A stretch of DNA of 56,106 nucleotides from a virus. Lineage: Duplodnaviria > Caudoviricetes. Location: positions 1 to 56,106 of IMG/VR virus record IMGVR_UViG_3300030106_002316, one strand, 5' to 3'. Below, piece after piece: positions 6,324-56,106 of this stretch (position 1 is its first letter; the number at the start of each line of letters is the position of its first letter). Both the position numbers and the translations under genes were made by a program. Below the pieces are notes generated by a model that was given only the letters and a program-made list of their open reading frames with translations, did no database searches and was not told the origin of the DNA.

Positions 6324-9300
6324 TTATAATCCTATTCTTTCAAATAATTCTGTTTCAGCGTCATTTGTTTGTTGATCAAGGCTAATAGAAGGATCTTGAC
6401 TGATAGTATCAATATCTATTTCGTCTTCTTCTAACACCTCTTGTCTTGTCAAACCGTATCCTCCGAAAAGGTTTTCATCTTCGACCAAAGATAACTCTCC
6501 TGCGACAATATCTTTAGGCTCATTAAATCCAAGAATAGGTACTGTCATATCTGTAAAAGGAATATCTAAACCTTTCTCTTGAAGATACCTAACGTTAAAA
6601 AAAGATCTTAAAAATTTTACAACTTCATTTGGAGTAGGATCGTAATTTCTAGACTCTTCTTTATCTGGATCATAAGTAACTGCTCTTGAAAAAGCAGGTT
6701 TTGCCATAATGTCAAGTATCTTTGAAACAAAATTTCTTTCATCTTTCACTGGTTTGTTGTCTATAATAAGTCCTAAATTTCTAACAAAATTTGGATCAGA
6801 CATGATTGTGTGCAACATTAAATGTTTTGCTCGTTGTTGTTCTCTCACAATTTGTTCTGTTGCCAAATATCTCCAACTAACAACTCCTCGCATACCAGAG
6901 TATATTCGTGATAGCGCTGCAGAGTATGTTAGCCCTCTAGGTATATTGCTAAATTCTCCAGAAGCAAGGTCAGGGACTAAGCCTTTTATTGCTATAACAT
7001 TATCGAATATCATTTCTAAGTCTTCAACAAATGATTGATTTGCTCCTACCGCTCTATCTATTTTCTTTAAACTTGTTCCCATGTTTTCATACATAGTCAT
7101 CATTTCAACTATATTTATGTCAGAATCTAGTTGAAAAGCTTTTGGAGTTGATATTACTCCTTCTGAAACAAGAGAATCGTTGATCCATTGTGTAGGACGA
7201 AACATTTCCTCTTGATTAACGCCTCTTATTTTGTCTATATCTTTTTTTGTACTAAGGTCTAGCATTGCTTTTCTAGTACTGGTTACGTTTTGAGATTTCT
7301 TAATTAGGGTACTTACTAAAACATCCCTAAAGCTTTGGAGTTGTTTTTTTTGAGTTTCGCTAACAGTTCTGTTATAAATATCTTGAGGCGTTACACCATA
7401 TAATTCTTTTATAAACACATCAAATCGTGATCCTGTTATTTGTTCTCTATCTCTAATAGGAAATTTCTCATCAAATGTTTTTTGTATGCTAGAGACATCT
7501 AATGCAGGTTCAAATCCTGCTTCTTTAATCTTTTCCGAACTTTCTTCTGCTAAAGTTTTTACTCTTCCAAAAATATCTGTTACTTCGTCACTTGCTCCTA
7601 CAGACTCCCTTGCATAAGTGTCTGCTCGTGATGCTGGAAATAAAAAGTCAAATAGCTGGTTGGTGTCTTTTATAGATTCGACCTCTGTACCAATAGATTT
7701 TTTTATGTTTTCTAATTGGGTACTGGTCATTCTTTTTAAAGCTGCATCCAAATCCTTAGTTGCGTTATCTATGTCTTCTGTTACATTTTTTACAGAATTT
7801 TTGTCTAACAAGTTAAGATATTCTTTTGCTCTATCTGCAGCTTTTTTAGATATTAACCTATTCTCTAATAGATTTGATATTGTGGATATGTTTGTTTCAT
7901 AATTGCCTCTAAGCAATCTTCCTTGTATTATTTCAAATCCAAAAGTTGAGTCTAAGTCATCTAAAATTTGTTTGCGAATATCTTTCATACTTATAATATT
8001 TTGGTTGCTGTCTTTAAAGTCTGAAAATAGTTCATCAAGAAGCTTTCTTGACTGAGCAGGATCTTTTGCTTTTAAAAATGGTGCGAGAAGATCTCTTGGT
8101 GAATCAATATTTCTTAAAAACTGCGTAACTCCTCCTTCAGCTTGTTCATCTATTGTTTGTAACAATCTTTTGCCCAAGTAGGATTCATGCCATGTTCTTC
8201 TAAAGTTAGTATACTCTTTATTTGCTTCGGCTACTTCGCTTATGTTGTGTCCTTCAAATATTTCGTCCAGATTTTTAGAAGAATTGTACACAGCTTGCGA
8301 TGCTTCAGGTTTAGTAAATTTGTTTCTCCAAGACCAATCAGCATGATTCTTACGAAGAGTGTGCATATCAGAAGCATTCATAGAATGTGTAAATTTAGAA
8401 TTTAATGCAGATCTATTTTGAGAAGTTAGGTTTGAAAGAAGTATTCTTAAATAATCTTCTTCAGACATTTTTAAACTTGCAGCGTGATCTGATAAATTCT
8501 CAAGTGTTAAAGACAGGTCGAAATCTCCTGTATCATCCTTTGAGTGTGGAATAGAACCCGACTTGCTTCCTTTTGCTAATGTAATACTTAAATTACTATC
8601 AATAATGTTTTCAGCTATATCAACCATCTCATCTTTTGAAGTATTCCCCAAGCCTTTATATCTAGCGAAACGAATAAAAGTATCAATATCATCAGAATAA
8701 CTTATAGGCTCTCCTTCAGCCCTCGTAAATTTTCCAAAAGCAAGATACTCATTTGGCTTTTTAAGAATTGCGTGTATTTCTCCAAAATCATCTATTTGCT
8801 GATTTCTTAATTTTTCTAACTCATCAATATAATTCTCTGCGTCCAAAGTTTTTCCTTGCAAGGCTTCGTCCATCTCATCAAATCTTGCATTTTTTGTTCT
8901 TATTGCTTGTTCGTAAGCGTTTGTAGCATAACCTTCTATCCTGTTTCCAAAAGCAGTCTCTGCTCTTGACAATGCTTGCATACCATTCGGACTTTCTTCT
9001 AAGCCAACACCATGCGTTCTTCGTAAACCGAGGCCATCTTCGTCCATCATTATTTTTCTTACTTGGCTATCTCTTAAAGTTCCTATTCTTTTAGTTTGTT
9101 GAGATAATGAATTTATTTGTTCAGAAAACTCACCTATGTTTGATTTAAGTTTGGCTACAATTTTATCTGCACCTATTTTCAAATCCTTAAATTCACCCGA
9201 AGTTTTTCCGAACCCTCCAACAAGATCTTCCATTGCGCCTTGTATGTATCCAACTTGATCCTGTAATTCCTGTTGGTGTGTTCTAAATATGTTTAAAATA

Positions 9301-11402: not shown

Positions 11403-11410
11403 GTGTATTC

Positions 11411-14400
11411 CTATCTCTTAGTATTGTATAAATGAATTATGAGATTAAGTATTAATCTTTTTTCAGGCGCTGCGCCTATATTTAATTTCTTCAAACTTTC
11501 TTGTGCCTGTGCTTTTTCTGCAGAATCTTTTGTATTTCGTATAGCTTCTTGCAACCCATATCTTCGAGAAGCCCTGCTCAAAACATCACCAAGTTTCAAT
11601 CCATTTTGACCGTATCTGTTCAATCTAGAAACAATTTTTGGTGTGTTTCCAAATCTTCTTAACATTGAGACTCCTCTTCCTAAAACTTTCTGTTTTTCTT
11701 CCTTGCTTAAATTATTGTAAGATGCAATATTACCTCCTATTACAGTTGTTCCGTACTGCGTTTTTTCTAATCTTTTTCTTGGTGGGAGGTTTTTTGAAAC
11801 TTGTGAAAATGTATTAGCAAATATATTTGATTCTCTTGCTAAATTAGCTGAATCTAACTTTATATCTCTTCCGTCAAGTTGAGTTATTATGCTCTGAGGA
11901 AAAACATTAGAAGCTTCGTTTGTTTGTTGTTGTGGCAATCCTGCTTCATGTCTTAATAAATTGAAATTCTTAGATTCATTATAGAGCCGTCTAAATTTAG
12001 CTCTTCCAACGGATCTACTTACTTCAAGCATTTTTCTTTCTATAAGAGAACCATTTTTTATTCTTGCATACTTAGCATCATTCTCTGCTCTCACACCTAA
12101 AAAGTTTACTATGTCTTCTACTCTATCAAAGGAACCTTCTCCAGTTTCTGATCCAGCACCGCCCCATATGGCTCTATAAAGTATAGCAAAGTCTTCGTTT
12201 GAAATAGCACGACCACCGTTTTGTCCTTGTACCATTCCCGCATAAGTGTACGTCATACTTACTTTAGTCATAGCATTTTGAGCTAATAGGTAGGCTTGAT
12301 AAGCTATTACTTGCTGCCTTAAAGCCACCTTCATATGCCTTTCTCTATCTTCTGGATTCCCTGCATTTGATGCTTTATCTAAAGCTTCTTTTGCAGCTTC
12401 TGAAGCTACAGAGATAGTAGATTTCCACTCTTTTGATTTTGCTTTTGCCCACTGTTCTACGTGGGCAAGTCTGGATTTAACAAACCCGTCATTTTCAGGA
12501 TTCGAGGATTTATAAGAATCTGCGCTAAATTTAAACTTTTCTTTTAAAAAATCTGGAGTAACTTGAGCAATAATTAATGGAGCAGCGTTAACGTAGTCTC
12601 TAATCTTTTGAAGAAAAACTACTGTTGATGATGCAGCTTCAGTTCCAATCTTAAAACCTTTTCTTCCTACTCTTTTTTCTTGTACTTTTAATGCTTCCAT
12701 TAACTCCTTATTTTTAATAAAGTTTGGATCTTCCTTCAGCAAATTAAAAAGATTTGTGGCATCCGATGAAGTTATATTTCCGTCACCACTCAAGCTCTTA
12801 AGAAGCGTATCTGTTGCACTTAACTTTAACTGATTATTTTTAAAACTACGTATATTTTCTTTAGTTTCACCAAGTTTGTTTATTGTTTCTTTGAGATCTT
12901 TTATTTTTGTATTTAAAGGTGGGTCCTTATAAATTTCCGCTTCAGTGTAGTGCATAGGTCTGCTTGTAGTTATCGCCCTCTCTCCACCCGCCATCAAAGA
13001 CACGGTAGGAGGGGGAACTATTTCAGAAAACGCTTGTTTTTGAGACAGTATTTCTACTGATTTTTCCAAAGCTTCTTGGTTTATCTTACCCTCGGATGTT
13101 TTAAATTCAAACGTCTTTTGAAGCTGCTCTTTTACAACTTCTAAATTACTATCTGTAGGATTATCTATAAATTCGTTTAGAGAAGTATATACGCTTGATA
13201 ATCTTAAAAACTCATCTAATTCTGTAGCTTTGTCAGGACTCTCAAAGTATTTCGGATCAGCTCTAAGAAGATCGTCATAATACATAAGCTTGCTCACCCT
13301 TCCATCTGTCATATCTAATGGGCTACCAAACTTTTGTACTTCCTCATTTCCAAGATAATCTACGGTTATAATAGGTTCAGAAGTTACGTTTGTCACATTA
13401 AGATCGTTTGGAGTTTGTTTTTTTGTTGTCCTCTTTATTGGTGTATTTATTCTTCTTTCTATAATCACCGTGCCTTCATCATCTCTGTGACTATTTTTTA
13501 TAGGAGAAGTCGGCATTCCTAAATTTGTCCCCCCTGTATGTATGACCGCAACCTCGCCTGACTTTATCTGCGCTAATGCGTCTTCATAATTTATTTTTCC
13601 TTTACTATTTTCAACAACCATGTTTGCTTGTTCTTCAATGGTTCTTAATGAAGAACTGGTTTTTCTTTCTGGTATTAGTACGTTTGATTTTTTATTTTCG
13701 GTAAACAAATTATGAATATTGGGCATTGACTTTTTTGTAGTAGTATTCGTTATAGATCTTTCAATCTCCCCGTTAGATGAAGTATACTCTATTCCTGTAC
13801 TTTCTAAAGCTGCCTTAACATTTAAAAAAGCCGTTTTATATCCTTTATTCTTACTAACATGCTTTATAATAGCATCTTTTTCAGCCCCTTGCTTACTTTG
13901 AATAAGACTATCAAAGTTTTGTAACATAGTATAATTCCATAGGTTGTTATTTGGTGAGCTTGAAAGAACTTTTGCCCTTTGTGTATCAGTCAAATGTGCA
14001 AATATATTAGAAGATATTAGTACGTCTGTTTTATTAGGTATCGGAGTAAACTTTACGTTTTTATCTTTGTCTGTATAAGGTATAATTTCATTATCAGGAT
14101 AAACTTTTTTAGCGTTTATTTTAAGTCGTATCTTTTCACTAGTATCCCACTTTTTTTGTAAACTTTTTAAATAATTGACGGTGGTTTTATTGTCTTTGGT
14201 CTTATTGACTTTTGAATCGCCTTGTGGACTCATAAGTTTTCTAACTTGAGCCAATATTTTTTTATTTGATGCATACGGAGATGGATTTGTCGTCCCGTTA
14301 ACGATATTTGTTGCTATCTTTTTTTGAAGAGCGTTGTCTTCTTTAGCCTCTATAGCCTGTCTTAGAGGGAGTAAATTATACTCACCACCAACTGGTTTTA

Positions 14401-14746
14401 TTCCGTAAGTACTTTCAAGAGCCTCTTGTTGCTCTTTAGAAAAAGTATTAACTGGCAATTTGTTGTTATATTGTGCGTACTGATTCATTAAAGCAAAAGT
14501 AGCATTTCCTACCTTAATGCTTTGGTTCTTTTTTGCGTTTTTTTGTGTAGCAGCTAAGTTTTTTTCTGCAATGTCTAATTGTGTTTGTCGGCCTAAAGCT
14601 GCTATGCTTTCTCTTGATTCTCTCCCCAATCTTGCCTCTTTTCGTTGAGCAGCAAGTTTAGCGGTATCAGCTTCTGCTGCTGCTCTTTCTTGTTGAGCCT
14701 GTATGAATCCTGTGGCTATCCCGCCAGCTAATGCTGAAAATCCCAT
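11411..14746 (-). CDS. Internal virion / ejection protein
   Basis: 1111 aa, N-terminal GFSALAGGIATGF followed by coiled coil. Confidence 0.6.
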   Translation of the reverse strand: MGFSALAGGIATGFIQAQQERAAAEADTAKLAAQRKEARLGRESRESIAALGRQTQLDIAEKNLAATQKNAKKNQSIKVGNATFALMNQYAQYNNKLPVNTFSKEQQEALESTYGIKPVGGEYNLLPLRQAIEAKEDNALQKKIATNIVNGTTNPSPYASNKKILAQVRKLMSPQGDSKVNKTKDNKTTVNYLKSLQKKWDTSEKIRLKINAKKVYPDNEIIPYTDKDKNVKFTPIPNKTDVLISSNIFAHLTDTQRAKVLSSSPNNNLWNYTMLQNFDSLIQSKQGAEKDAIIKHVSKNKGYKTAFLNVKAALESTGIEYTSSNGEIERSITNTTTKKSMPNIHNLFTENKKSNVLIPERKTSSSLRTIEEQANMVVENSKGKINYEDALAQIKSGEVAVIHTGGTNLGMPTSPIKNSHRDDEGTVIIERRINTPIKRTTKKQTPNDLNVTNVTSEPIITVDYLGNEEVQKFGSPLDMTDGRVSKLMYYDDLLRADPKYFESPDKATELDEFLRLSSVYTSLNEFIDNPTDSNLEVVKEQLQKTFEFKTSEGKINQEALEKSVEILSQKQAFSEIVPPPTVSLMAGGERAITTSRPMHYTEAEIYKDPPLNTKIKDLKETINKLGETKENIRSFKNNQLKLSATDTLLKSLSGDGNITSSDATNLFNLLKEDPNFIKNKELMEALKVQEKRVGRKGFKIGTEAASSTVVFLQKIRDYVNAAPLIIAQVTPDFLKEKFKFSADSYKSSNPENDGFVKSRLAHVEQWAKAKSKEWKSTISVASEAAKEALDKASNAGNPEDRERHMKVALRQQVIAYQAYLLAQNAMTKVSMTYTYAGMVQGQNGGRAISNEDFAILYRAIWGGAGSETGEGSFDRVEDIVNFLGVRAENDAKYARIKNGSLIERKMLEVSRSVGRAKFRRLYNESKNFNLLRHEAGLPQQQTNEASNVFPQSIITQLDGRDIKLDSANLARESNIFANTFSQVSKNLPPRKRLEKTQYGTTVIGGNIASYNNLSKEEKQKVLGRGVSMLRRFGNTPKIVSRLNRYGQNGLKLGDVLSRASRRYGLQEAIRNTKDSAEKAQAQESLKKLNIGAAPEKRLILNLIIHLYNTKR

Positions 14747-33293: not shown

Positions 33294-36065
33294 TTAAGCT
33301 GCTGTATCCCCTACTTTTTCAACAAACCCGCCTTGATGATAGAAATGGTGTTTACCTATTACTGTCTTTCTTTCCATTCCTCTAAGATGTTTTGGACGTT
33401 CTACTACTTCTGGATTATAGTAGTACAACGCACCATTTGTTATGTCGTCTATTTCATTATTCATTATCGCTCTGGCATCTTCCACCGCATCACGATAAGC
33501 GTTATCTTTTATAGAAACATTCATAAACTTAGCAAAATTCTTTTGGTGTTTTTCATCTTTAGTATTCCCTAACTCAAAACCTTTCAAAGCACTAAATGCG
33601 TTAGGATGTAAAATTACACTTCTAAAAGGATCGTTAGGAAATCTGTTTATTCCGAATTGAGGATCTTTAGAGTTAACTCTGTTCCTTATTACGTGCATTA
33701 CAGCTTGCATTCCTGCTCTATTTTCGCTTCGAGCCTCTCCTAATGCCGTTAAAGCCATAAGTTTCTCTATCTCTAATGTTTTTAACCTATTAAAGTTATC
33801 TTGGTCTTCCTTTCTAATTGTGCTATATTTTTGTCCTTTATGAATAAAAGATCTTTCACCTGCGTCAGAAGCCGTTTTGAATGCTTGATTAAATGAAGCA
33901 TCTGCAATTTGTGTTTCTCGGGGTTCAGGAGTCTGTACAGCAGATGTTTCCATTTGAGTTTGTGGAAGTGGTTCTTCTTGAACATTTTCTTCCTCCTCGA
34001 TAGGTGTCTCTACATTTCCTCCAAGTGCAAATCCTTGTGGTGCAGCAAATCCTTGTTGTACTACTTTACCTGTAGGATCGACCATTGGTGGTTGCTGGCT
34101 TTTTTGTCTCGCTTGTTCCAGAGCTTGTACTTGGTTGTAAGCTGATTGAGTAGGTTGTGACGTATCACTTGTTAAAGCTTGTTCTGCTGATTTTAAAGCT
34201 TTAACAGGATCATCAACAAAACCCCCTGTCTGCATCATTGGCGTTTGAGGGGCTGGTTGTGCATCTGCAACCATCTGTGGTTGTGGCGTTGGCTCTGGTG
34301 CAGCTTCCATAGGCTGTTGCTCTTTCATAGAAGGCTGTTTTTCTTCTTCCAAGCGTTTACGTAATGCAAGTCCTTCGTTACGAATCTTGTCAAGATACTT
34401 TTTGCCACCGCCAAAGTAAGGAACAAGACCTTTAGGAATGTGGTATTCGTAATTGCTTATTTTAATTGGAACATCGTCACTCGGATCAAGGTCTGTACCT
34501 TTCAAGTTAACGTTGTTCTTTATAGCAAGCTGTATAGCTTCTTTCGCGTAGCGGTTAAGCTGCTTTAAACCTACTTGTAAGACAGTCTCATATGGGAGGA
34601 TGTAATCACCTTCATCTGCTTCACGGGGTATGTCATCTTTCACTGATTGTTGACCGCCTTCTTGTGGAGGAGCAGCTTGCTCGTTGACCATGCCAAGGTT
34701 TGTCATCTCTGCTTCTTGACCTTCTTGAGGCATCTGTGGCATCTGTGGTGCTTCGCCACCTTCTTGCATTGCTATTTGACCACCTGATTCGTAGAAACTT
34801 CCTATATCTCCAGCACCAAGATCTTCTCCAAAACCACCTCCTGCAGAAGGATCTACTGAATCTTCACCGCCATCCTCTCCACCTTGTGTGGTTTCTACTG
34901 TGGGTTGTTCAGCTATCTTTTTTGCCAATGCCCTCTGTAGATCAGGAGAAATTGTTCTGATGCTAATTATCTCTTGAGCTAGTTTACGTCCTGCCTTTCC
35001 TGAATTTATAAGATCTAAAAAGTCCTGCTTTAAACCACCATGATGAACTTTTCCTCCTGCTGAGATAAAATCTCCTTTCTCCCATCGACCACCTTCATCC
35101 TTATTATGTTGGTATCCTGGAGTAAAACTTCCTCGAAGACCACCACCTCCAAAATCAAGACCTGTCCAGCTTTCAACCCTTTTTAAACCTTTTGTAAAAA
35201 TACTGTCATTTATACTCTTTTGTTCTGCATCACGGTACATTTTGTCATTGTCAGAGTACCAATATACGCCAGTGTTAGAGGCATATCTTGTTACAAAATC
35301 AGTCGAATCTTTCGGTAAGTCGGCATAATATTGCCCTTTCTCATTGACAGCGTTCCCGTTTATATCCATTCTGTCAATACCTGCCTGATAAGCTGAAGCT
35401 TGAGCCTCATTCATCTGTCCATTATCTATCATCTCTTGTATTTGATCCGAAGTAAATGTTCCAAAATCATAATAAGGATTTCCTTTGCTTTCTTCTGAAG
35501 AAGGATCAGACCCACCAAAAGCTCCCTCTAGAATTGTTGCCATTGGAGAAGCCATCATTTTTAATACATTTGTAATACCGTAATTTGGATCAATAGCAGG
35601 ATCTAAGTTCTCTAGACCCATCTGCTCCATATCAAGACTTGTCCATTCTTGCTCCTGTTTTTGTGGAGCAGACAGGGGAGCAACGACAGGTGCTGGTGCT
35701 GCAGATTGTTGTCCTGTCGTAGTGGCAGAATCCTGTTTTGTTCCTTGAGCAACGCCCATACGTCCTTGAAAAGACCCGAAAGGCGATGATGTAAATGTTG
35801 CAAGACCTTGTGGCAACAATCCTGACTTGACCCCTGTTCTATAAAAAGATTGTGCTGTTACACCTTTTGGTACGTCTGGTAAAAGCTCGTTTTTACCTAG
35901 TCCTGTGTTTTCTGCCATCTTTTGAACAACTTCAGGCCACGATAATTTCTTTTTACCTCCTGCTGTTACACCTACTGGAGCCACTGTTCCAGGAGATATC
36001 GTTGTACCTGTGTCTGTCTCAAGAGCATCTTCAAATTGTTGGGCTATTTCCTCTAATGTCGCCAT
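33294..36065 (-). CDS. Virion-associated protein with C-terminal SleB/CwlJ-like (Hydrolase_2) cell-wall hydrolase
   Basis: LTALGEARSE...AV.HVIRNRV...DITNGALYYYNP...IGKHHFY; central DDIP....EGDYI.P motif. Confidence 0.8.
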   Translation of the reverse strand: MATLEEIAQQFEDALETDTGTTISPGTVAPVGVTAGGKKKLSWPEVVQKMAENTGLGKNELLPDVPKGVTAQSFYRTGVKSGLLPQGLATFTSSPFGSFQGRMGVAQGTKQDSATTTGQQSAAPAPVVAPLSAPQKQEQEWTSLDMEQMGLENLDPAIDPNYGITNVLKMMASPMATILEGAFGGSDPSSEESKGNPYYDFGTFTSDQIQEMIDNGQMNEAQASAYQAGIDRMDINGNAVNEKGQYYADLPKDSTDFVTRYASNTGVYWYSDNDKMYRDAEQKSINDSIFTKGLKRVESWTGLDFGGGGLRGSFTPGYQHNKDEGGRWEKGDFISAGGKVHHGGLKQDFLDLINSGKAGRKLAQEIISIRTISPDLQRALAKKIAEQPTVETTQGGEDGGEDSVDPSAGGGFGEDLGAGDIGSFYESGGQIAMQEGGEAPQMPQMPQEGQEAEMTNLGMVNEQAAPPQEGGQQSVKDDIPREADEGDYILPYETVLQVGLKQLNRYAKEAIQLAIKNNVNLKGTDLDPSDDVPIKISNYEYHIPKGLVPYFGGGKKYLDKIRNEGLALRKRLEEEKQPSMKEQQPMEAAPEPTPQPQMVADAQPAPQTPMMQTGGFVDDPVKALKSAEQALTSDTSQPTQSAYNQVQALEQARQKSQQPPMVDPTGKVVQQGFAAPQGFALGGNVETPIEEEENVQEEPLPQTQMETSAVQTPEPRETQIADASFNQAFKTASDAGERSFIHKGQKYSTIRKEDQDNFNRLKTLEIEKLMALTALGEARSENRAGMQAVMHVIRNRVNSKDPQFGINRFPNDPFRSVILHPNAFSALKGFELGNTKDEKHQKNFAKFMNVSIKDNAYRDAVEDARAIMNNEIDDITNGALYYYNPEVVERPKHLRGMERKTVIGKHHFYHQGGFVEKVGDTAA

Positions 36066-36288
36066 CTTTTTGTGCCTTTATTGTATCTCTTGTTGAATCT
36101 TGTAATTTAATTAAGGTTTCCAGTAAAACCAGCTTCCCCTGCAGTCGGCGCACCTCCAACTCCGATTCCTCCACCATCAACCGATGGCGGTTTAGTTGGA
36201 TTAATTGGTTCAGGTACTCCTTTAGCCCCTCCCATACCTCCTGATTGTTGGCTAGGGGCAGTAGCATCTTCGCTTGTTCCTTGTTCAT
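36031..36288 (-). CDS. Small helical protein downstream of portal, overlapping the portal 3' end
   Basis: RBS-like AAGGG; W..L.EYL...E.RRLQG...L..L pattern. Confidence 0.65.
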   Translation of the reverse strand: MNKEQAKMLLPLANNQEVWEGLKEYLNQLIQLNRHRLMVEESELEVRRLQGKLVLLETLIKLQDSTRDTIKAQKDGDIRGNSPTI

Positions 36289-38233
36289 TTGGCATCAACC
36301 CTTTCAGTATCTCAGCGAATATCGCTGCATCATTTATATCATTCACCAACGCATCAGGATCAATGTCTTGGCTGATGGCTAACTCACGAATGAGATTTGG
36401 TATTTTTATGAATGGTGCAAGCATAGGATTAGCAACTGTTTGGAGTAAAGCTGTTAATCGTTGTGTACGTACTTCCTTTTGTATAACAGCGCTTGTTCCT
36501 TTAGGCTTAATCTCAAGGTCGCCTATCTTCTCAGGTGTACGCTCGTTAAACTGCATATTCCACTGAAAGAATGCTTCTCCCAATGGCTTCAATAAAAAGT
36601 CATCTACGTTCTTTATGACAGTCTTTATACTTAGACCCGCACTTGACATGAGCATACTGAGGCCAGCAGCAGTACGTCCTGTGCCTGTCACGCCTGTCTG
36701 TCCGTGTACGATAGATGGTATGCCTGTCTGTTCGTCAGCTAACTGTCTCGCCTTATCGAACATCTGGACATTTTCTCCAGCAGTGCTAGGAAACTTTATG
36801 CCATTCACTGCCGTACCTGTTACGCCAGACTGCCTTCTAAATATTTTTCCTGGAAATATATCCATTGTCTGTCCAGGAACGAGTTGTGTTTCATCAATGT
36901 CAAATACCAGATTGCCAGCTAATGCTAGGTTATCTATTGCCATACGGATGTGCCCGTTCATTAGCATTTGGCTATCTTCCATGTTCTCTGCAACACCTAC
37001 ACCAAATAACTGATAGGGATTGAGTTCATAGGGAAACGCTTGGTAAGGTATGCGTGTTGGTATAAAAGGATTTGCTACAAAGCGAAGTATCTCATTTCCT
37101 GAGATCCAGATATTTACTTGTACAGCGTCATTCCCTTTCACTTCTTTCGGAAAGTCGATTCCAATTTCTTCCGCAAACTTTGCGTCAAGTGTACCCCAAT
37201 ACTCCAACACTTCAAAACGACTTCCTTGGTAATTCGGATCATCGTCATTAGAATAGAGAGTATTTTCGTAATACTTTTCTTCATAATTTGGCCCACTTTG
37301 TAAAACATTGTCAATTGCCTCTCTGTTAAAGAATGGACGGTTAGTAAGATCACGTACTTGTTCCCTATTCATACGGTGTCGTTGAATCACATAGTCAGCA
37401 TCTTCAACACTTGTCGCACTAGGATCAGGGTAGAAATCCCAACAGCTAACGGCTTCAATACGTGGAACTGTACGATCCATTGGATTATATTGCCCACCTT
37501 CCCAATTGTGTACAGTCTTGTTATAATTAAATGGGCCTTTGATTATGCCTGTTCCAAGAAGTGAACACTCAAAGATTGCGTGTCGCAGAACTGTTACAGC
37601 ATTTGTGTCTAATAGCTGATCTTGTATGCACTTCTCCATCACTCTCGCTGATTCTGCTGCAGGACTTATTTGCGGTTCACCCATACGAGCAGGGCCAGAA
37701 GCAAGGTTCGCTCCTTCATACTTCTCCGCTAACCCACCAAGCTCTGCTGGTTCTGGGCCTTGTTGCTGCATAGGAGTCGCTTGTAAGGCTCCAGGAAGTA
37801 GCTCTTGTCCGTCACCTTCAAATCCGTAAGGATCAGATACTTCTGGAGTTACAGGAACTTTAGATAAGTGTGCGAACTCATCTATACCTACTGGCATAGG
37901 CGAGGATTCAACAGAAATAGGAAACTTGTTGTTTGCGAACAGGATGTCTATGATCTGTCCGTAAGCTGCAAGAACTTTAGTCTTTGTAATCTTTATGAAT
38001 ACTTGACTGCGCTCGTTGTCTCTATACTGTGTTGTTGAGTCGTAGATACCGCGATAGTTCTTGTAAGACTTTAACCATCGTGTTTCATCGTTTCTACGAC
38101 CTGTCTCAGCATCAGAAAAACGAGCCTTAACAGTACCAATGATGCTGTTAAAGTTCTCCCTGTCTCCATCCAGATCTATAAGACCTTCGGTTTCCGCTTC
38201 TTCCGATTCATCTAAGAATGATTGATCAGCCAT
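36107..38233 (-). CDS. Portal protein
   Basis: W...Y.NYRG.Y, F.KITKTKV.AAYGQI, WDFYPDP.A, YELNPY..FGVG; position after terL. Confidence 0.9.
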   Translation of the reverse strand: MADQSFLDESEEAETEGLIDLDGDRENFNSIIGTVKARFSDAETGRRNDETRWLKSYKNYRGIYDSTTQYRDNERSQVFIKITKTKVLAAYGQIIDILFANNKFPISVESSPMPVGIDEFAHLSKVPVTPEVSDPYGFEGDGQELLPGALQATPMQQQGPEPAELGGLAEKYEGANLASGPARMGEPQISPAAESARVMEKCIQDQLLDTNAVTVLRHAIFECSLLGTGIIKGPFNYNKTVHNWEGGQYNPMDRTVPRIEAVSCWDFYPDPSATSVEDADYVIQRHRMNREQVRDLTNRPFFNREAIDNVLQSGPNYEEKYYENTLYSNDDDPNYQGSRFEVLEYWGTLDAKFAEEIGIDFPKEVKGNDAVQVNIWISGNEILRFVANPFIPTRIPYQAFPYELNPYQLFGVGVAENMEDSQMLMNGHIRMAIDNLALAGNLVFDIDETQLVPGQTMDIFPGKIFRRQSGVTGTAVNGIKFPSTAGENVQMFDKARQLADEQTGIPSIVHGQTGVTGTGRTAAGLSMLMSSAGLSIKTVIKNVDDFLLKPLGEAFFQWNMQFNERTPEKIGDLEIKPKGTSAVIQKEVRTQRLTALLQTVANPMLAPFIKIPNLIRELAISQDIDPDALVNDINDAAIFAEILKGLMPNEQGTSEDATAPSQQSGGMGGAKGVPEPINPTKPPSVDGGGIGVGGAPTAGEAGFTGNLN

Positions 38234-38239
38234 TTAGCT

Positions 38240-38488
38240 TTACTTTGGTTCTAGTGAATTGATGCCTTGTTGCTTGTCAGCAGCCATGATCATACCGCTT
38301 TGACCCATGTGCTTACTTCCACTTTCTGAAGGGAAATCTTCTGTAAGGGAGCCTTGGTTGATTCCTGGGCCGAACTCGTTCTTCTCACGATAGAGTTGAG
38401 CTTCGTTCACTTCGGACACAGCCCCGTGTTTAGCCATCTGACCCATTATGTAGCCAGATTTGTATGCTTGTGGATTACCGTATGGCAT
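38240..38488 (-). CDS. Hypothetical protein
   Basis: RBS GAGG; operon context. Confidence 0.65.
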   Translation of the reverse strand: MPYGNPQAYKSGYIMGQMAKHGAVSEVNEAQLYREKNEFGPGINQGSLTEDFPSESGSKHMGQSGMIMAADKQQGINSLEPK

Positions 38489-38517
38489 AGTTTAGTTCCT
38501 CATTTGGTTGGTTAAAA

Positions 38518-40899
38518 TTAATTTTGTGGTCTATCTATAAAATACCCTGCATATCTTCGGTAAAAAGGAGAGTCTTCATATTCTCTTGTCGCTCTTGCAA
38601 ATCCTGTATCCATCTCTTTACCGAAAGATTCGTAAGCACTTGGAGGAGGAGCGCCATGCATTTGTGTATATTGTTGCGCTTCTTCAGCCATTGCTGCTCT
38701 TCTTTTAGCTCTCTCTCTATCTTGTAGTTCTCTTTCTATATTACGTTTTTCTTGACCTCTTAAATAAAGACTCGAAGATCCTTTTATTGGTTTTCCTGTT
38801 TCAAGAGCCGTCAGAAGTTCTTCATCTCGCACACTCTCATCTACAGTACCGCCCATAAGTGTCGGTGAAAGCGCAACATCTGCTATTGCTTCTGCAGCTT
38901 TAGCTCCTCCTGTGACACCTATACCTATCGCTGTTGTTGCTGCACCTATCGCTAGTTTTTTTGCAGCTTCTGTTATAGCTTTTCTTTCTATTAATTTAGA
39001 TTGGGCTGTTACTTTATCTAGTAGTTGTCTGTAAGACTCTAGATTTCCAGACTCACGTAAAGCTATTGCTTCATCAACTTCAGCTTGAGTCATTACTCCG
39101 TGTTTAAGTTCTTTAAGAAATTTGTACCCTCTCTCACGTACTTTTGCTTTAGGCTCTCCAAGTAATTCATCTGTTTGCGATGAAATTTCTGTAGTAGGAA
39201 TAGTAGTTTTTGTTTTGTCAGGGCCAAACCTTGTTTCTCTTTCTTCCTTTAACTCTGCTGCTTTTAGTTTGTTTTGTTCTGTTTCTATAGCTAACTCAGA
39301 AGCTGCTTTTTCAGATTGGGCTTTAGATAAAGTATTATCTGATTCTATCTTTTGATTAAGCTCTGGCGTTACAGTTTTTTCTTTTTCAGGTACTCCTTGA
39401 GAGATCTCTTCTGGTGTAGTAGGTTGTACTTGATATACTTTTGCTCCTACATTTGTCAATTCAGGTACGTTACCTAAACCAATCTTTGCTGGAATTTCGT
39501 TGAATGTATTTACACCTACAGCTTTGGCTTGCTCTCTTTGTAAAAACGTCTGTCCAACAACCTCACTCGCCGTATCCTCTCCTACCAATCCTAGCGTTAA
39601 ATAGTTTTGCCTTTGTGTAGCATCAAACAATTCAGAGGCTTCACCTAAACTGTCTCGTTGCTTACCCATCATATCATCTATTATTTGTGCTGATACTGAT
39701 GGTGGTAAACCTGATGAGTTAAGAATTAAAGACGTTGTTATTTTTCTGTTATCTTTTGCAGTAAGGTTTCTTCCCATTCCTTTTCTTACAGCACCTGTCT
39801 CATCTACTGTATCTTCAACTAAGTCTGCAAATTCGCCTTTTAAGTTTCCTTTTTCTAAAGCATCAGCTATATTAACATTAGGAAACAACTTAATAGCGTC
39901 AGGTGCATACTTTTCTTTTTTTACAAGACCAGATTGCACTGCTTCTAAAGTCTTTTTTATTCTTTCTCTTATTATGGCTTGAAGATATGGGCTTAAAGGA
40001 GTCGGTTTATATCCTTTTGCTCCTCCTACAAATTCTTCTGTTGGTATTAAAACTGTTGGATTAGTTGCATCTACGTATCCTGGAGATCTTCCTGCTCCTT
40101 TTATGTACTTTATAAACCCTTCCTTACCTCCTCTATCTGCCCATTCAGATGGAATGTACAGTCTTGTAGACACCATCTGCTCTAGTCTTTCTCCAAGAAA
40201 ACCCCACAGATTAACTACAGATCTTTCTGTATCTGCTTTAAATATTGCTTGAGGAGTATTAGCTGAAGGTCGTATATTTTGTATTACTCTTGCATGTCTT
40301 GAATAAAACTGCTCTGCTGTTGGTGATGCTTTAAGTTTAGCACCTTTACTTCTAGGAGCCTTTTTCTTTTTTAAACCTACTTGTAATAATGATAAAAAGT
40401 TAGATTCTTTACCACCAAGATCTAATACATCTTTTGTTCTGTTAAGAAGAAATCTTAAAGTTTCTCCTGCTTGTGTTCCTTTTGTTAAACCAAGAGACTC
40501 TACTCCTTTGTCTTTTGCTTCATCACTAAGAGTCAATAAAGTAGTATCTAGTCCTTTAGTAAAACCTGATTTTGTAAGTTTATTCTCTAGACCTCTTAAC
40601 GCATTGACTCTCTTAACTGATGGAGAAGCTTTGTGCGCCTCTCCTCCTGTATCGGACTGATATGGAAATAGATCTTGAAGTTTCTTTCCTAAAGGTTCTT
40701 TTATTTGTGCGCCATCAACGTTTATTCCTGTATCATACAAACGCAGGATGTTTCCTTCACGTATCGTTAGATCTTTAGGATCTTTAGCCAATAATGCTTC
40801 TCTTGAAGGAATAGAAAAATCTTCACTTGCTATTTGATCAGCAGTGAATAGTACATCTTTTATTTTTTCTAATTCTTTTAAAGGATCTGCTGTCGCCAT
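38518..40899 (-). CDS. 793-aa protein with a tyrosine recombinase / topoisomerase IB / protelomerase-like catalytic pattern
   Basis: Ordered R238 (LGER), K295 (FVGGAKG), K382xxR385 (TAKDNRK), MGK413, Y433; the CDS is secure, the function is tentative. Confidence 0.55.
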   Translation of the reverse strand: MATADPLKELEKIKDVLFTADQIASEDFSIPSREALLAKDPKDLTIREGNILRLYDTGINVDGAQIKEPLGKKLQDLFPYQSDTGGEAHKASPSVKRVNALRGLENKLTKSGFTKGLDTTLLTLSDEAKDKGVESLGLTKGTQAGETLRFLLNRTKDVLDLGGKESNFLSLLQVGLKKKKAPRSKGAKLKASPTAEQFYSRHARVIQNIRPSANTPQAIFKADTERSVVNLWGFLGERLEQMVSTRLYIPSEWADRGGKEGFIKYIKGAGRSPGYVDATNPTVLIPTEEFVGGAKGYKPTPLSPYLQAIIRERIKKTLEAVQSGLVKKEKYAPDAIKLFPNVNIADALEKGNLKGEFADLVEDTVDETGAVRKGMGRNLTAKDNRKITTSLILNSSGLPPSVSAQIIDDMMGKQRDSLGEASELFDATQRQNYLTLGLVGEDTASEVVGQTFLQREQAKAVGVNTFNEIPAKIGLGNVPELTNVGAKVYQVQPTTPEEISQGVPEKEKTVTPELNQKIESDNTLSKAQSEKAASELAIETEQNKLKAAELKEERETRFGPDKTKTTIPTTEISSQTDELLGEPKAKVRERGYKFLKELKHGVMTQAEVDEAIALRESGNLESYRQLLDKVTAQSKLIERKAITEAAKKLAIGAATTAIGIGVTGGAKAAEAIADVALSPTLMGGTVDESVRDEELLTALETGKPIKGSSSLYLRGQEKRNIERELQDRERAKRRAAMAEEAQQYTQMHGAPPPSAYESFGKEMDTGFARATREYEDSPFYRRYAGYFIDRPQN

Positions 40900-40901
40900 T
40901 A

Positions 40902-42545
40902 TTAATAACCGAATACACTGTCTGCGGGTTGAAAAGTATCTTTCTTAATCTGATTGAACAGGTTATTTTGTGGTAAACCTGTCGGCCTCGTCATGCACAT
41001 ATATCGAAGTGCATCGTAAGCGTGATCTTCTGCTTTCGTATCTACGTCCTCGCTGTTCGTCTTAGATAGCGGAATCGTAGGAAGTGTTCTTACTAGGTTG
41101 GTGCAGGTCGAGAACATCTTTAGCTTTGGTTCTTCTGTTCGTTCATTTATAGCTAATCGTCTGTGCAATTCTATTTTACCTGCTATGCGGTGCTTGTCTG
41201 CTGGTATAAACCTTACACCGTTCCGTATCATTGTCTCTGCTATACTTGGGCCTGTTCCATGCTTTGACCAACAGGCTCCGTCCAGTACGGATATTTGCAT
41301 CAAAGGATCGTCTTTCTCTAGGGCGTTGATTGTTTGTGCCAGCCTCTCGCCTGTATACCCTTTAACGTAAAGTTCTCTGTAGATCCATATGACTCCATCC
41401 CAATCTAAAGCACCCCATAAGATACAGCTAGGAGCAGAATAGCCATAGTCGGCTGCTCGTATTCTGGGCCAATTATACGGTACTTCAAATGGTTCAACAA
41501 CGTGTACGGATCTTTCAAATTCTGAAAATGCTGCACCATCTGCAACATCCCAATCACCTTCCAGCAGTCTGCGTCTTTCTACTTCAGGAAGGGAGAGAAG
41601 CATTGCTTCGTATTCTCCGCTTTCCATAAGATACGGGTTATCTGTTAGTCTCGCTGGTATGAATCTACGTTGATAAAGAGGTTCTCCAGCGTGTATAGGA
41701 TGGTTAGGCCCGTATCGCAGTATCTGCTTTGATTCGATGTCTGTGGCCCAAAACGGATCATTAGGAACAGCAGGGTCTATAAACATCTTTTTAATCCACC
41801 AGCCCCCTATACCTCCAGGGTTGGCGGATGCTCTCATATATGTCTCTATGTTTGGATCTGTTGTTCTTAATCGTGAACGAAGGTAGTTCCAAACGTAAGG
41901 AGTGGGGTATTGACCAAGCTCATCTATCCCAATCCACGTAAAACTTTGTCCTTGGTAGCGTGTAACGTCACTGTCTTTATCTACGTAGCTGAATAACGCT
42001 GTCGCTCCGCTTGGAAAAGACCAAGTATTCTTAGACTCTCGAAAGACTGCTCCAGGAAATGCTTTAGGATATAGCTTCCGAGATTGATCTATAAGTTCCG
42101 TTAGCTCCGAAAGTGTACGTCTTAATAATAAAGCTCTGTGATTACCATTTGAAGCGTAACGTAACAGATCGACCAACATGGCGAAGGACTTTCCTCCACC
42201 TGCAGCACCTCCATATAGGACTTCTTTCTCTGGTGCTGCTAAAAAGTCAACTTGTGGCCCCTTATTAGGAGTAAAGATGACTTCTGTATTATCTTTTATT
42301 GATTCCCTTATATCCTTCGGAAGTGATTCTACAAATTCTTTTGTTGTTGCTCCGCCACTTCCTGCTAAACTCTGCCCTTTCTTTTTGTTTGAGACTTGGT
42401 TATTTAGCTTTTTTAGTTTATTTACTACCCTGTTTTGTTTCTTTTTGGCTGCTTTAAGCTCTCGTTGTATCTCCCGTTTCTTTTGTTCTGCGCGAGATAT
42501 ATTGTAACGACCCTTTTCTCCAGGTTTTAGCTTTGGTCGGGCCAT
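40902..42545 (-). CDS. terL: Terminase large subunit
   Basis: Walker A YGGAAGGGKS, Walker B IGIDE, SANPGG, nuclease DYGY and EDHAYDALRY. Confidence 0.95.
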   Translation of the reverse strand: MARPKLKPGEKGRYNISRAEQKKREIQRELKAAKKKQNRVVNKLKKLNNQVSNKKKGQSLAGSGGATTKEFVESLPKDIRESIKDNTEVIFTPNKGPQVDFLAAPEKEVLYGGAAGGGKSFAMLVDLLRYASNGNHRALLLRRTLSELTELIDQSRKLYPKAFPGAVFRESKNTWSFPSGATALFSYVDKDSDVTRYQGQSFTWIGIDELGQYPTPYVWNYLRSRLRTTDPNIETYMRASANPGGIGGWWIKKMFIDPAVPNDPFWATDIESKQILRYGPNHPIHAGEPLYQRRFIPARLTDNPYLMESGEYEAMLLSLPEVERRRLLEGDWDVADGAAFSEFERSVHVVEPFEVPYNWPRIRAADYGYSAPSCILWGALDWDGVIWIYRELYVKGYTGERLAQTINALEKDDPLMQISVLDGACWSKHGTGPSIAETMIRNGVRFIPADKHRIAGKIELHRRLAINERTEEPKLKMFSTCTNLVRTLPTIPLSKTNSEDVDTKAEDHAYDALRYMCMTRPTGLPQNNLFNQIKKDTFQPADSVFGY

Positions 42546-44197: not shown

Positions 44198-44344
44198 TTT
44201 GTTATTTTGGGGAGATGTTTGCTACCTACGCAATCTCTAAAAATCTCGTTTAGCAGGAGATAGAAGTAATGTTCCTTATCCCAGATTTGTATGAACTTTA
44301 AGGTTTGTGTGAATATAGACTCTTTTCTACTCGTGCCACCTTCT

Positions 44345-44372
44345 ATTATACACCATATATCAATGTTGTCAA
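44345..44372 (-). promoter_or_regulatory. Sigma70-type promoter pointing into the late arm
   Basis: TTGACA-N16-TATAAT on the minus strand. Confidence 0.8.
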
Positions 44373-44411
44373 GTAAATAATGCTCTAATATGAAAAAAAA
44401 TTATTTTTTAC

Positions 44412-44439
44412 TTGACAGACTCGTAATACGGTGTATAAT
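44412..44439 (+). promoter_or_regulatory. Sigma70-type promoter pointing into non-coding DNA
   Basis: TTGACA-N16-TATAAT with an upstream A/T tract. Confidence 0.8.
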
Positions 44440-44474
44440 AGTGTATAACACTGCCGAGGGGTGCAATAGCAATA

Positions 44475-44492
44475 CTATATAGTACTATATAG
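44475..44492. repeat. Perfect 18-bp palindrome CTATATAGTACTATATAG
   Basis: Direct reading. Confidence 0.9.
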
Positions 44493-44903
44493 AACTGTGC
44501 TGCACTGTGATGAACTACGAGTCCACTCGCACCAAAAGGTTAACAAGACCAGAATAGCTTCAAAAAAATAAAATTAATAGGGGCCGTGAGTATACTATTA
44601 CGGGGGGGCGTAGTGGCCCATGCGCGGGTGTTCCTATTTTGTCCCGCACGAAACATCGCCGATCATTTAGCAATATTGATTATATAAGGAAAACCGCCAA
44701 AGCACTATTTATCCTTATTTTCTGCATTATTTCTTCACGTACACATACATGTGAGTAATCTTGAACTGACATTTTGTATTTATAGTTTTAAAAGTAGTGT
44801 ATAGGGGGCAGGGTGGCGCACATTTCAAACCCTACGCAATAACCCTACTATCCAGACATTACAAAGCTTTAAAGAGTTATGCGAGTTATTACAGCCTACA
44901 CAT

Positions 44904-46042: not shown

Positions 46043-47158
46043 TTACGCAACAAGCAATTCTTTTGCTTTGTTAAATGCTTTGGTTTTAATGTCAGTAGCA
46101 CCAGCACCATAGAAAGCTTTATCCAATCGATTATCCTGACCGTGATCTCTGACAGGCTTATGGTCTGACATATAAGTGACAGTATTAAACGCACCCCAGA
46201 GAGTACCTTGAGCGCTTGGCTTATCCCATCCCATATTGATAGCTGACGATTGCTTACTAACAATTTCACTTTCCTCTTGGATCTCATCGTGAGATTTACC
46301 AGACAACAAGCCGTCAATAATCTCCTGCTGCCTTCTGATCTGAGCATCCTTTGTTTCTTTTGATGAACTATTCGGAGCAAACTCTTGTCCTCTGAAATAT
46401 GCCATTGCTTTCCTGACACCTTCAGAGTGTATAAGCTTGCCTGATTTGTCCTCGCGTTCTTTACCGCCAAACACTGAACGGAAATACTCAATCTCCTCCT
46501 CACCTTGAAGAACACGTTGCGCCATCTGTTTGGCAAGTCCTTCCAACTTTCCAAAGTTCTTAGAACTGACACCAAGAGCAACTTTCAATGCGTCTGCATC
46601 GAACACGGCGCGGTGGTTATGAGTAACAATATCTTCCGCCCCGCCCATTGCTAAACGCATCGTATTAGCACACACGACACGAACTGGTGTATTCAAAGCA
46701 CTGTTTGCGTGTTTACCAGTATGTGAAATAGTGAATAACAAATTGTTGTGAACCCAGTCATCATCCCCGAGATCAAACCCCTCATTCGTGGTAGCCATAC
46801 ACCAAACTTTCTGACCACCAAACAACGAGCCAGCGGTGTGCAGATACATTGAACCATTGTTAACAAACTCAGAGAAGAACTCGAACAACTCTTTGTTCTG
46901 AACTGGCTTGTAGTCTCCTGCAACATAATGTCCTAATATCTGACCATCGCTGATACGTTCAATAAAGTTAGAGTTTTCAATTGGCTCTGATGGATAATAC
47001 TCGTGGTTTGCTGGATAACAGTTATTGTTTAACTTCACTTCCCAATCGCAACCTGCTTCCACCATCATTTGCTCTGGTGTCAGATCATTGCTAATTGGAT
47101 TACCTAACCCATGCCAAGGTGTTTCTCCTGCGAAGGCCATTGTTTCTACTTCATGCAT
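46043..47158 (-). CDS. DUF932 / TIGR03299 phage-plasmid family protein
   Basis: MHEVETMAF.GE.PWHGLG, Y.PVQN, TAGSL.GG.KVW, TPVRVVCANT, GTLWGAFN.VT. Confidence 0.9.
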   Translation of the reverse strand: MHEVETMAFAGETPWHGLGNPISNDLTPEQMMVEAGCDWEVKLNNNCYPANHEYYPSEPIENSNFIERISDGQILGHYVAGDYKPVQNKELFEFFSEFVNNGSMYLHTAGSLFGGQKVWCMATTNEGFDLGDDDWVHNNLLFTISHTGKHANSALNTPVRVVCANTMRLAMGGAEDIVTHNHRAVFDADALKVALGVSSKNFGKLEGLAKQMAQRVLQGEEEIEYFRSVFGGKEREDKSGKLIHSEGVRKAMAYFRGQEFAPNSSSKETKDAQIRRQQEIIDGLLSGKSHDEIQEESEIVSKQSSAINMGWDKPSAQGTLWGAFNTVTYMSDHKPVRDHGQDNRLDKAFYGAGATDIKTKAFNKAKELLVA

Positions 47159-55144: not shown

Positions 55145-55396
55145 ATGAAAAGGAAAGGAAAAGGTACATGGCATATAAAGTGGTTTTCAACAATTTTGTT
55201 GATGCTTGGTATGACTTTGACAAGTCAAAATATTTTCCCATACAATTTATACCTTCACTTAGTAGGAACGTTAGGTTGGACATACGTTTCTATTGTGTGG
55301 AATGATAGAGCTTTGATTATTTTGAATAGCGTAGCTTTATCTATATTTATAAACGGAATAATAGCAGAAATGGTGAAAACAAATGGGATACCTTAA
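55145..55396 (+). CDS. Small membrane protein (DUF6552-like)
   Basis: KW.ST..L..GM.LTS.NI.PYNL......GW..V...W.DRAL..LN. Confidence 0.75.
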   Translation: MKRKGKGTWHIKWFSTILLMLGMTLTSQNIFPYNLYLHLVGTLGWTYVSIVWNDRALIILNSVALSIFINGIIAEMVKTNGIP

Positions 55397-56106
55397 AACA
55401 CATCAACCTTGTGATGACTGCGGGAGCAGTGATGCACTTGCAGTGAACGATGATGGAAGCTCGTTTTGCTTCTCTTGTGAAAGACATCGTAAATCTACGG
55501 ATGAACTCTTATTAGATGACGAAGAAGATGAAGAAGAAACAATGAAGCATAATCCCCGACACGCTTCTCATCTTAATGAAGGCGAGTTTATGGATTTGCC
55601 TGAACGTGGTATAACGAAAGAAACTTGTGAGGCTTACAATGTAACTATTGCGCCTAATGGTTATAAGCATTACTACCCTTATTATAATGAAGATAATGAG
55701 TTAATAGCGCAGAAACATAGGATATACACAAGCGACAATCAGAAAACATTTCAAACGATGGGAGATTGGGATCAAACTACGTTGTTTGGACAATCCATAT
55801 GCAGGAAAGGCGGTAAATACATTACATTATGCGAAGGCGAACTTGACGCTCTCGCTGCATATCAAATGCAAGGCTCCAAGTGGCCTGTTGTTTCTATAAA
55901 GAATGGTGCTGGAAATGCTGTTAAAGATGTACAAAGAGCTTTCGAGTTTCTCACTTCATATGATAACATTGTTGTATGTTTTGACAATGATAAGGCTGGT
56001 AAAAAAGCTGCTAAGAAAGTTGCTGAATTATTATCACCTAAAGCCAAGGTGATGCACCTTAACTTGAAAGATGCTAACGAGTATCTTATACAAGATAAGA
56101 TTGAGA
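55383..56106 (+). CDS. Primase-helicase N-terminal part (zinc finger plus TOPRIM), continues at position 1
   Basis: Manual translation MGYLKTHQPCDDCGSSDA...CFSC; EGELDALA; CFDND.AG; open to the window end. Confidence 0.92.
   Translation, partial: MGYLKTHQPCDDCGSSDALAVNDDGSSFCFSCERHRKSTDELLLDDEEDEEETMKHNPRHASHLNEGEFMDLPERGITKETCEAYNVTIAPNGYKHYYPYYNEDNELIAQKHRIYTSDNQKTFQTMGDWDQTTLFGQSICRKGGKYITLCEGELDALAAYQMQGSKWPVVSIKNGAGNAVKDVQRAFEFLTSYDNIVVCFDNDKAGKKAAKKVAELLSPKAKVMHLNLKDANEYLIQDKIE
56008..56105 (+). repeat. Terminal overlap, copy 2
   Basis: Identical to 1-98. Confidence 0.95.

Follow-up and report, generated by a model that had tools for sequence, protein, structure and literature searches.

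A probable, highly divergent tyrosine recombinase gene between terL and the portal gene of an HMO-2011-type marine podovirus

The stretch of DNA considered here (the window) is the whole of the virus record IMGVR_UViG_3300030106_002316 in IMG/VR, 56,106 nucleotides in length (positions 1 to 56,106), and the element of interest is P0001, a 793-residue open reading frame (ORF) lying at 38518-40899 between the genes for the terminase large subunit (terL) and the portal protein. What this ORF very probably encodes, as a genuine and intact gene, is a protein of the tyrosine recombinase (DNA breaking-rejoining) superfamily that has diverged very far from the other members; it stands for a new, uncultured and unannotated branch of that superfamily, in which both the architecture and the genomic setting are new. 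An earlier note on this DNA had placed a gene at these positions, and its coordinates hold, since the ORF is intact from an ATG start to a TAA stop; the coding strand has, however, to be corrected to the minus strand, the plus-strand reading of 38518-40899 being rejected as a frame full of stops. The same note had picked out R238 (in FLGERLEQM), K295 (FVGGAKG), K382 and R385 (LTAKDNRK), K413 (MMGK) and Y433 as resembling the active site of a tyrosine recombinase, and all of these are found where it had put them. The parts of the gene are as follows, conservation counts being those in an alignment of 16 sequences (A4).

38518-40899, minus strand: P0001, probable divergent protein of the tyrosine recombinase superfamily, long C-terminal extension and stop codon included.
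40345-40899, minus strand: residues 1-185, N-terminal helical region that differs between subfamilies, possibly a core-binding-like domain.
39565-40344, minus strand: residues 186-445, predicted catalytic (DNA breaking-rejoining) domain, which begins at the invariant P193.
40186-40188, minus strand: codon of R238, Arg I position (16 of 16).
40015-40017, minus strand: codon of K295, beta-hairpin Lys position (15 of 16).
39742-39756, minus strand: K382-D-N-R385-K386, where R385 is Arg II and K382 the His I position (R385 and K386 in 16 of 16, K382 in 9 of 16).
39661-39663, minus strand: codon of K413, His II position, where the shorter relatives read LGH (Lys in 6 of 16, His in 10 of 16).
39601-39603, minus strand: codon of Y433, presumed nucleophile (16 of 16), in a low-confidence stretch of the structure model.
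38521-39564, minus strand: residues 446-793, C-terminal extension of about 350 residues, which recombines independently of the N-terminal part.
38869-38955, minus strand: residues 649-677, Gly/Ala-rich block LAIGAATTAIGxGxTGGAKAAE...VAL, an invariant run in the smaller alignment A3 (predicted local distance difference test score, pLDDT, <50).

Homologues of P0001 are rare. A word-based search found four proteins and a second such search, made with a profile, one extra protein only; when 1.84 billion representatives were scanned in full with HMMER, 10 homologues came out at E ≤ 0.001, five of them at E ≤ 1e-30. All are from metagenomes and uncultured: no cultured phage with a homologue was found, 50,697 phage records searched with P0001 by tblastn giving no match, and scans of IMG/VR with the single proteins P0001 and P0008, which gave 44 and 18 pattern matches respectively, turned up no relative among them (patterns derived from an alignment were taken from A3, the alignment A2 being too diverse for the purpose). 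Identity to P0001 in A4 runs from 90% down to 20%, with a mean column identity of 30%; just six columns are fully invariant (P193, R238, F339, R385, K386 and Y433), K295 is kept in 15 of the 16 sequences, and R238, K295, R385 and Y433 all fall among the 11 of 793 columns that are kept in at least 15 of them (hypergeometric P = 3e-7). In a protein so rich in these residues (44 Arg, 72 Lys and 20 Tyr) an R/K/R/Y pattern could be present by chance, but its conservation argues that it is not, and in this respect the expectation of the earlier note that these four residues should be conserved is borne out; K382 and K413, which it had listed beside them, are not conserved. It must be remembered that the R238 column is alignment-dependent, being invariant in A4 and not listed as invariant in A1, A2 or A5. 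The residue R226, 12 positions before R238, gives (by hand count) the same R-x11-R spacing as in P0008 and XerA. Spacings between the catalytic residues are 27, 70 and 24 in the shorter relatives, which is near canonical, and 57, 90, 28 and 20 in P0001; the wider spacings in P0001 are due to insertions, which its catalytic domain has when compared with those relatives. At the His II position, Lys is found in P0001 and five other members and His in the remaining 10.

The second line of evidence comes from sequence profiles, and here it is the shorter relatives that provide the connection, as they carry a textbook, recombinase-like series of motifs (PFRPGE...RGNKTR...DxRK...LGH...Y). The protein from one related locus (L005) matches the integrase family phrog_1 at E = 4.9e-10 over residues 156-456, and in a per-protein scan of PHROGs this family was matched by four of nine proteins, and in a scan of all members of A4 by four of the 16. 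The same four proteins match PF00589 with E-values of 4.2e-5 to 5e-3 (three among 8 scanned, one among 9), all below the gathering score, and the other family members scanned there gave no match; two shorter relatives additionally match the NCBIfam model XerA (1.6e-4 and 5.7e-4). When a profile of eight shorter relatives was compared with the PDB, the top four of nine matches were XerA (7.5e-4), XerD (0.022), XerD (0.03) and XerA (0.082), the alignments with XerA and XerD pairing box I, the Lys, Arg II and LGH, and the weak tblastn matches obtained among the 50,697 phage records fell, in four cases out of four, on annotated integrases. The two subfamilies are themselves linked by hhalign, both over the whole protein (E = 1.1e-45) and for the catalytic domains alone (97% probability, E = 8.1e-11).

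Structure prediction, for which the underlying alignment had 16 rows only, gave a full-length AlphaFold model of moderate quality (pLDDT 67). Its top Foldseek match in the PDB was XerA (E = 0.048, probability 0.92); Cre, XerA and XerH are among the first ten, and Cre chains stand at ranks 3, 16 and 18. In BFVD the list is headed, each time with a probability of 1.00, by a protein without a name (7.2e-4) and by one with a Tyr recombinase domain (1.6e-3), and all named matches there with a probability of at least 0.5 were integrases or Tyr-recombinase-domain proteins, save two listed as uncharacterised.

Against seeing P0001 as a tyrosine recombinase that still works, a number of points have to be set. 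Searched with P0001 itself, Pfam, PHROG, NCBIfam and the PDB sequences give no match, so that its assignment is transitive; when hhalign is confined to the N-terminal half of the catalytic domain, the connection between the two subfamilies is weak (8% probability); and hhalign comparisons with a single CRP-3 integrase and with about 120 CRP-3-type integrases gave probabilities of <1%. The His I position in A4 is Lys in nine sequences, Ser in three, Gly in three and Ala in one, and never His. As to structure, no PDB match of the full-length model reached E ≤ 0.001, Y433 lies in a stretch of low confidence (residues 416-442, pLDDT <50), and with a model of the domain only (residues 186-500, pLDDT 72.6) XerA came at rank 23 (E = 0.89), the top matches being unrelated helical proteins. 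The structural comparison that the earlier note had proposed puts a recombinase first for the full-length model and not for the domain taken by itself. Finally, no target site for P0001 was found, either in a palindrome search of the genome or by comparison with the related locus L008. The fold results being mixed, the superfamily assignment rests on sequence profiles and residue conservation, which between them uphold the active site of tyrosine-recombinase type that had originally been suggested.

For residues 1-185 no family match was found, but the region is helical in the predicted model, and the Foldseek alignments to XerA and Cre cover 350-450 columns. The C-terminal extension contains an NEIPxKxG motif, a 47-residue helix (512-558), a GYKFLxEL/GVMTQxEV motif, the Gly/Ala-rich block and charged helices, which agrees with the earlier description of a charged tail and a Gly/Ala segment: the C-terminal third is charged and helical, with a Gly/Ala-rich stretch at residues 650-677. 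The block at 649-677 is the best-conserved stretch within the C-terminal half of the protein. It is weakly hydrophobic, and since its top 19-residue Kyte-Doolittle mean (1.18) lies under the usual transmembrane cut-off of about 1.6 it is taken to be amphipathic, with no clear membrane helix. A reading of GVTGGAKA within it as a Walker A motif was rejected, as by eye it does not fit G-x4-G-K-[ST]. An ESM Atlas search with the C-terminal part returned scores of 0.77-0.78, under the level of a lead.

The phage to which the gene belongs is a complete HMO-2011-type marine podovirus. CheckV rates the record as 100% complete, and a 588-residue primase-helicase frame (T7-type primase N-terminus, Toprim and DnaB C-terminal domain) spans 55383-56106 and 1-1043 without a stop, so that the assembly must be circular or circularly permuted. 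The portal protein is 46-52% identical to portals of Pelagibacter, Roseobacter and Puniceispirillum phages of HMO-2011 type, and 34 phage records match it, each at <60% identity. Read along the minus strand, the order is a sigma-70 promoter, small ORFs that include a weak candidate for the terminase small subunit gene (terS), terL, P0001, an 82-residue ORF and the portal gene, as the earlier note had it in placing the gene between terL and portal; beyond the portal gene come a 923-residue protein with a SleB-type domain, a phrog_13678 protein of unknown function and the major head protein. The features immediately concerned are these.

44345-44372, minus strand: perfect (12/12) sigma-70 consensus promoter, facing terS, terL, P0001 and portal, conserved in the related loci L008 and L004.
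40902-42545, minus strand: terminase large subunit (terL), its stop codon 2 nucleotides before the start of P0001.
38240-38488, minus strand: conserved 82-residue ORF of unknown function, accompanying the slot gene in five of the five loci that cover this position.
36107-38233, minus strand: portal protein, SU10-portal type.

P0001 is tightly enclosed, with gaps of 2 nucleotides from the terL stop and 29 nucleotides to the next ORF, and the promoter is the probable promoter of an operon comprising terS, terL, P0001 and portal. The 82-residue ORF is rich in Gly, Met and Gln, is 74-79% identical in L004, L008 and L010, has a 75-residue version in L005, and gave no family match. In HTVC033P, HMO-2011 and CRP-3, terL is followed either directly by the portal gene or by four ORFs of 47-96 residues, and no relative of P0001 or of the 82-residue ORF was found in their terL-portal stretches. 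Elsewhere in the complete genome there is no other match to PF00589; a search of the genome for paralogues of P0001 found nothing (top non-self E-value 0.029), and the genome has no tRNA gene.

Comparison of related loci reveals that the place occupied by P0001 is a hypervariable and mosaic slot. Five loci were compared, three of them from IMG/VR and two out of four from metagenome contigs; L009 (a 1.4-kb fragment) and L011 (probably the same contig as L003, which it equals in length, match position and identity) were left aside. As far as the contigs reach all five keep the gene order, which runs from terL to the family member in L003, from terL through the member and the small ORF to the portal gene in L004, L005 and L008, and from the member through the small ORF to the portal gene in L010. 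In L003, L004 and L010 the terL and portal proteins are 86-90% identical to those of the window, as against 31-33% for the protein in the slot, and nucleotide similarity (about 80%) reaches 40895-40902 and picks up again at 38520-38523, so that the exchange coincides with the borders of the ORF. The protein is moreover a mosaic in itself: relative P0003 is 98% identical to P0001 over residues 186-470 and 32% identical over residues 701-793, while in P0005 the corresponding figures are 28-30% in the N-terminal 470 residues and 96% over residues 701-793, which, on this sequence comparison, means that N- and C-terminal modules are shuffled independently. That the slot holds a mobile cassette was considered and rejected, the two short gaps leaving no space for flanking sites. 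Marine metagenome contigs from other studies contain parts of the P0001 allele with 0-1 differences (one contig of 2122 nucleotides covering the C-terminal part), and summed depth, counted in contigs only, is greater over terL and portal than over the P0001 ORF, as would be expected if relatives share the flanks but bear other alleles. No RNA run was listed as carrying the sequence. The contigs contain one long joint (35200 to 40863), the shorter side of which has 21 letters and so falls under the 30-letter level set for caution.

What such a protein might do can be approached in steps, for which the degree of assurance differs considerably. As the R-K-R-Y set has stayed fixed while nearly everything else has changed, we infer that cleavage and rejoining has most likely been kept, and P0001 probably does cleave DNA through a 3'-phosphotyrosyl link and rejoin it, if the conserved residues are any guide. 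The best guess as to its substrate is the DNA of the phage itself, handled at packaging or on entry, which is speculative and held at somewhat less than even confidence; the combined proposal, of a tyrosine recombinase that still cuts and rejoins DNA and acts on the DNA of its own phage at these stages, is put forward with a confidence just short of even. On this proposal P0001 would be co-transcribed with terS, terL and portal in a phage of headful type that is terminally redundant and has no other recombinase of this kind. Terminally redundant genomes need to be cyclised after entry, for which phage P1 uses Cre, and the possible jobs of P0001 would include a Cre-like cyclisation, resolution of a redundant or concatemeric genome, and relaxation or clamping of DNA. 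The relative PhiM6 is predicted to be pac-type and terminally redundant (PMC6256558). The C-terminal module might tie the enzyme to the head or packaging machinery, possibly for carriage in the particle; packaging in the virion, or ejection from it, would agree with where the gene lies, with the mosaicism of its C-terminal module and with its hypervariability, and such carriage is putative. A complex prediction for the portal protein with residues 560-793 gave no verdict (score 0.00). A bolder version, which we regard as unlikely, is that of a “pilot recombinase”, that is, a putative active strand-transferase which the exchangeable C-terminal module would bring into the head and which would enter the cell together with the DNA; there, ahead of phage gene expression, it would close the redundant genome into a circle, protect it or attack host DNA, and pressure from an arms race would account for the replacement of alleles. 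If true, this would be, as far as has been searched, the first enzyme of site-specific-recombinase type known to be packaged by a tailed phage.

Several other explanations have to be weighed. One is that P0001 is a lysogeny integrase in an unconventional place, integrating the genome into the host chromosome, and that the lineage is temperate. It is the sole tyrosine-recombinase-like gene in a complete genome, its shorter relatives match integrase models, and other subgroups of the HMO-2011 type are temperate with tyrosine integrases (PMC9038755). However, the same source has the canonical int of the group upstream of the replication module and not in the structural operon (PMC9038755); the intergenic gaps of 2 and 29 nucleotides offer no space for attP and there is no tRNA gene in the genome; and integration does not need an extension of about 350 residues. 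Nor did any of 170 pattern matches, in a search of one genome for each of 185,579 species with two C-terminal peptide patterns only, encode a relative, and no phage-host junction was recognised in the contigs, which is a weak test. These points make integration a rather improbable function, and they agree with the opinion of the earlier note that this is no ordinary integrase, given its terL-portal operon, its long extension, the lack of att or tRNA context and the location of the group's int elsewhere.

Another explanation, to which we attach the same low probability, starts from the variability of the slot: the protein could be an injected or early-acting weapon against host DNA or host defences, with diversifying selection as the cause of the hypervariability. 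Packaged anti-restriction proteins such as Dar of P1 and IPI* of T4 are similarly variable, and what was said above of the slot (an ORF swapped exactly at its borders between flanks of about 80% nucleotide and 86-90% protein identity, alleles as little as 31-33% identical, and a contig depth that is higher over terL and portal) is what such a role might lead one to expect. On the other hand no match to any defence or anti-defence family was found, in searches that did not extend to PADLOC, no host target is known, and the conserved active site would fit any DNA substrate.

Somewhat less probable again is a non-catalytic protein that binds DNA or serves in structure and has merely kept the recombinase fold, for example a DNA clamp or a head-assembly factor. 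The SPbeta repressor YopR/MrpR is the model case, and both MrpR (8a0a, rank 25) and YopR (8bj6, rank 49) are among the Foldseek matches; His I has been lost and His II replaced in the P0001 subgroup, and most of the P0001 sequence is helical and not that of an enzyme. Such a loss of activity does not sit easily with R238, R385 and Y433 being invariant, and K295 nearly so, at identities of 20-30%, which is hard to explain without catalysis. Least probable of all, and indeed very doubtful, is the relaxase of type IB topoisomerase kind or hairpin-making protelomerase of N15 type that the earlier note had entertained. In its favour, P0001 has KxxR where His I would be and Lys in place of His II, and human Topo I appeared once (rank 20, probability 0.08, domain-only model). 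Against it, K382 is kept in only nine of 16 relatives, the closest matches are Xer/Cre-type proteins and phage integrases, and the top 50 PDB matches of the full-length model include neither a type IB topoisomerase nor a telomere resolvase. The 56 kb contain no long perfect palindrome (the longest, of 18 bp, is not conserved) and none like telRL, the primase-helicase ORF running across the two ends of the record makes it a circle, and the terminase type points to headful packaging.

The region upstream of terL was examined for candidate target sites. The longest perfect palindrome in the 56 kb is that of 18 bp at 44475-44492, CTATATAGTACTATATAG, around which there is an imperfect 11-6-11 symmetry that by eye is dif-like. 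As a target for the recombinase it was nevertheless rejected, because it is missing from L008, the catalytic domain of which is 99% identical; it is also not conserved in L004. At 44343-44441 there are two perfect (12/12) sigma-70 consensus promoters back to back, conserved in L008 and L004, of which one is the operon promoter listed above and the second faces away, and a 39-nucleotide imperfect inverted repeat noticed here is accounted for by this pair. Within a 770-bp non-coding stretch, at about 44560-44690 on the minus strand, lies a G+C-rich block that could fold into a hairpin and has a T-run; L008 has it in nearly identical form and L004 does not. It may represent a small RNA, a regulatory site or a pac region; Rfam found nothing close to its gathering score over 44.1-45.1 kb.

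A few further observations concern the rest of the genome. The 923-residue protein after the portal gene (33294-36065, minus strand) has a C-terminal cell-wall hydrolase domain of SleB type (PF07486, E = 1.2e-13), varies between relatives (47-70% identity) and is likely to be an internal or ejected wall-degrading protein. Two very large ORFs, of 1692 and 1111 residues, lie at 6324-14746 (minus strand) and have no PHROG match at E ≤ 0.001. In the replication or early arm there are a DUF932 protein (46043-47158, minus strand; E = 1.4e-36) and a class II-like ribonucleotide reductase (3126-5042, plus strand).

As to why any of this should matter, phages of HMO-2011 type are, according to PMC9038755, a dominant and broadly distributed marine viral group, and the same paper reports no lysogeny-related genes in subgroups IV-X. 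In one sublineage of these phages there is a strand-transferase-like gene whose active site is conserved, and standard annotation misses it, P0001 itself matching no Pfam or PHROG model; full-text literature searches, judged by title and abstract and without supplements, found no publication describing such a protein. Within the superfamily the architecture is distinct, in that His I is absent, an Arg-Lys pair is invariant and the extension is long, coiled and rich in Gly and Ala. The enzyme, if active, would bear on the way in which marine phages with headful packaging cyclise or resolve their genomes, on whether supposedly lytic lineages can integrate, and on what is being contested at a hypervariable slot within an otherwise conserved packaging module.

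It is useful, lastly, to set P0001 beside systems that are already known. With the ejection proteins of podoviruses (T7 gp14-16, P22 gp7/16/20 and the N4 vRNAP) it shares its size, its helical nature, mosaic conservation and encoding in the structural arm; unlike them, it comes before the portal gene, its hydrophobic block is under the usual transmembrane strength, and its presence in particles is putative. In a term search, a review of ejection proteins has 0 mentions of recombinase, integrase or topoisomerase (PMC8954989). The phage and plasmid enzymes TelN, TelK and ResT are comparable in being large proteins of tyrosine-recombinase fold with extra domains, but P0001 has no telRL-type palindrome to go with it, none of them is in its top 50 PDB matches, and its genome closes circularly. 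The type IB topoisomerase of poxviruses belongs to the same superfamily, with KxxR for HxxR as in P0001, and, being packaged in the virion core, sets a precedent for carriage in a virus particle; P0001 differs from it in having no specific sequence or fold match to such enzymes, in a Lys that is present in nine of the 16 members of its family, and in the Lys at its own His II position. Cre, the tyrosine recombinase of phage P1, makes circles of DNA that has been packaged by the headful and is terminally redundant, and it also resolves dimers; it has 343 residues and no extension, lies outside the late operon and acts at a defined lox site, whereas for P0001 no site was found. The Xer proteins (XerA, XerC and XerD; PF00589, phrog_1) differ from the P0001 family in having His I, and in having a His where the family has its invariant Lys after Arg II, as well as in lacking the large insertions, the C-terminal extension of about 350 residues and the terL-portal operon location of P0001. 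They are, all the same, the best matches to the family in both sequence and fold, and they share with it the order Arg I, Lys, Arg II, His II and Tyr, the near-canonical spacing of these residues in the shorter relatives and, in the case of XerA, the R-x11-R pattern of box I.

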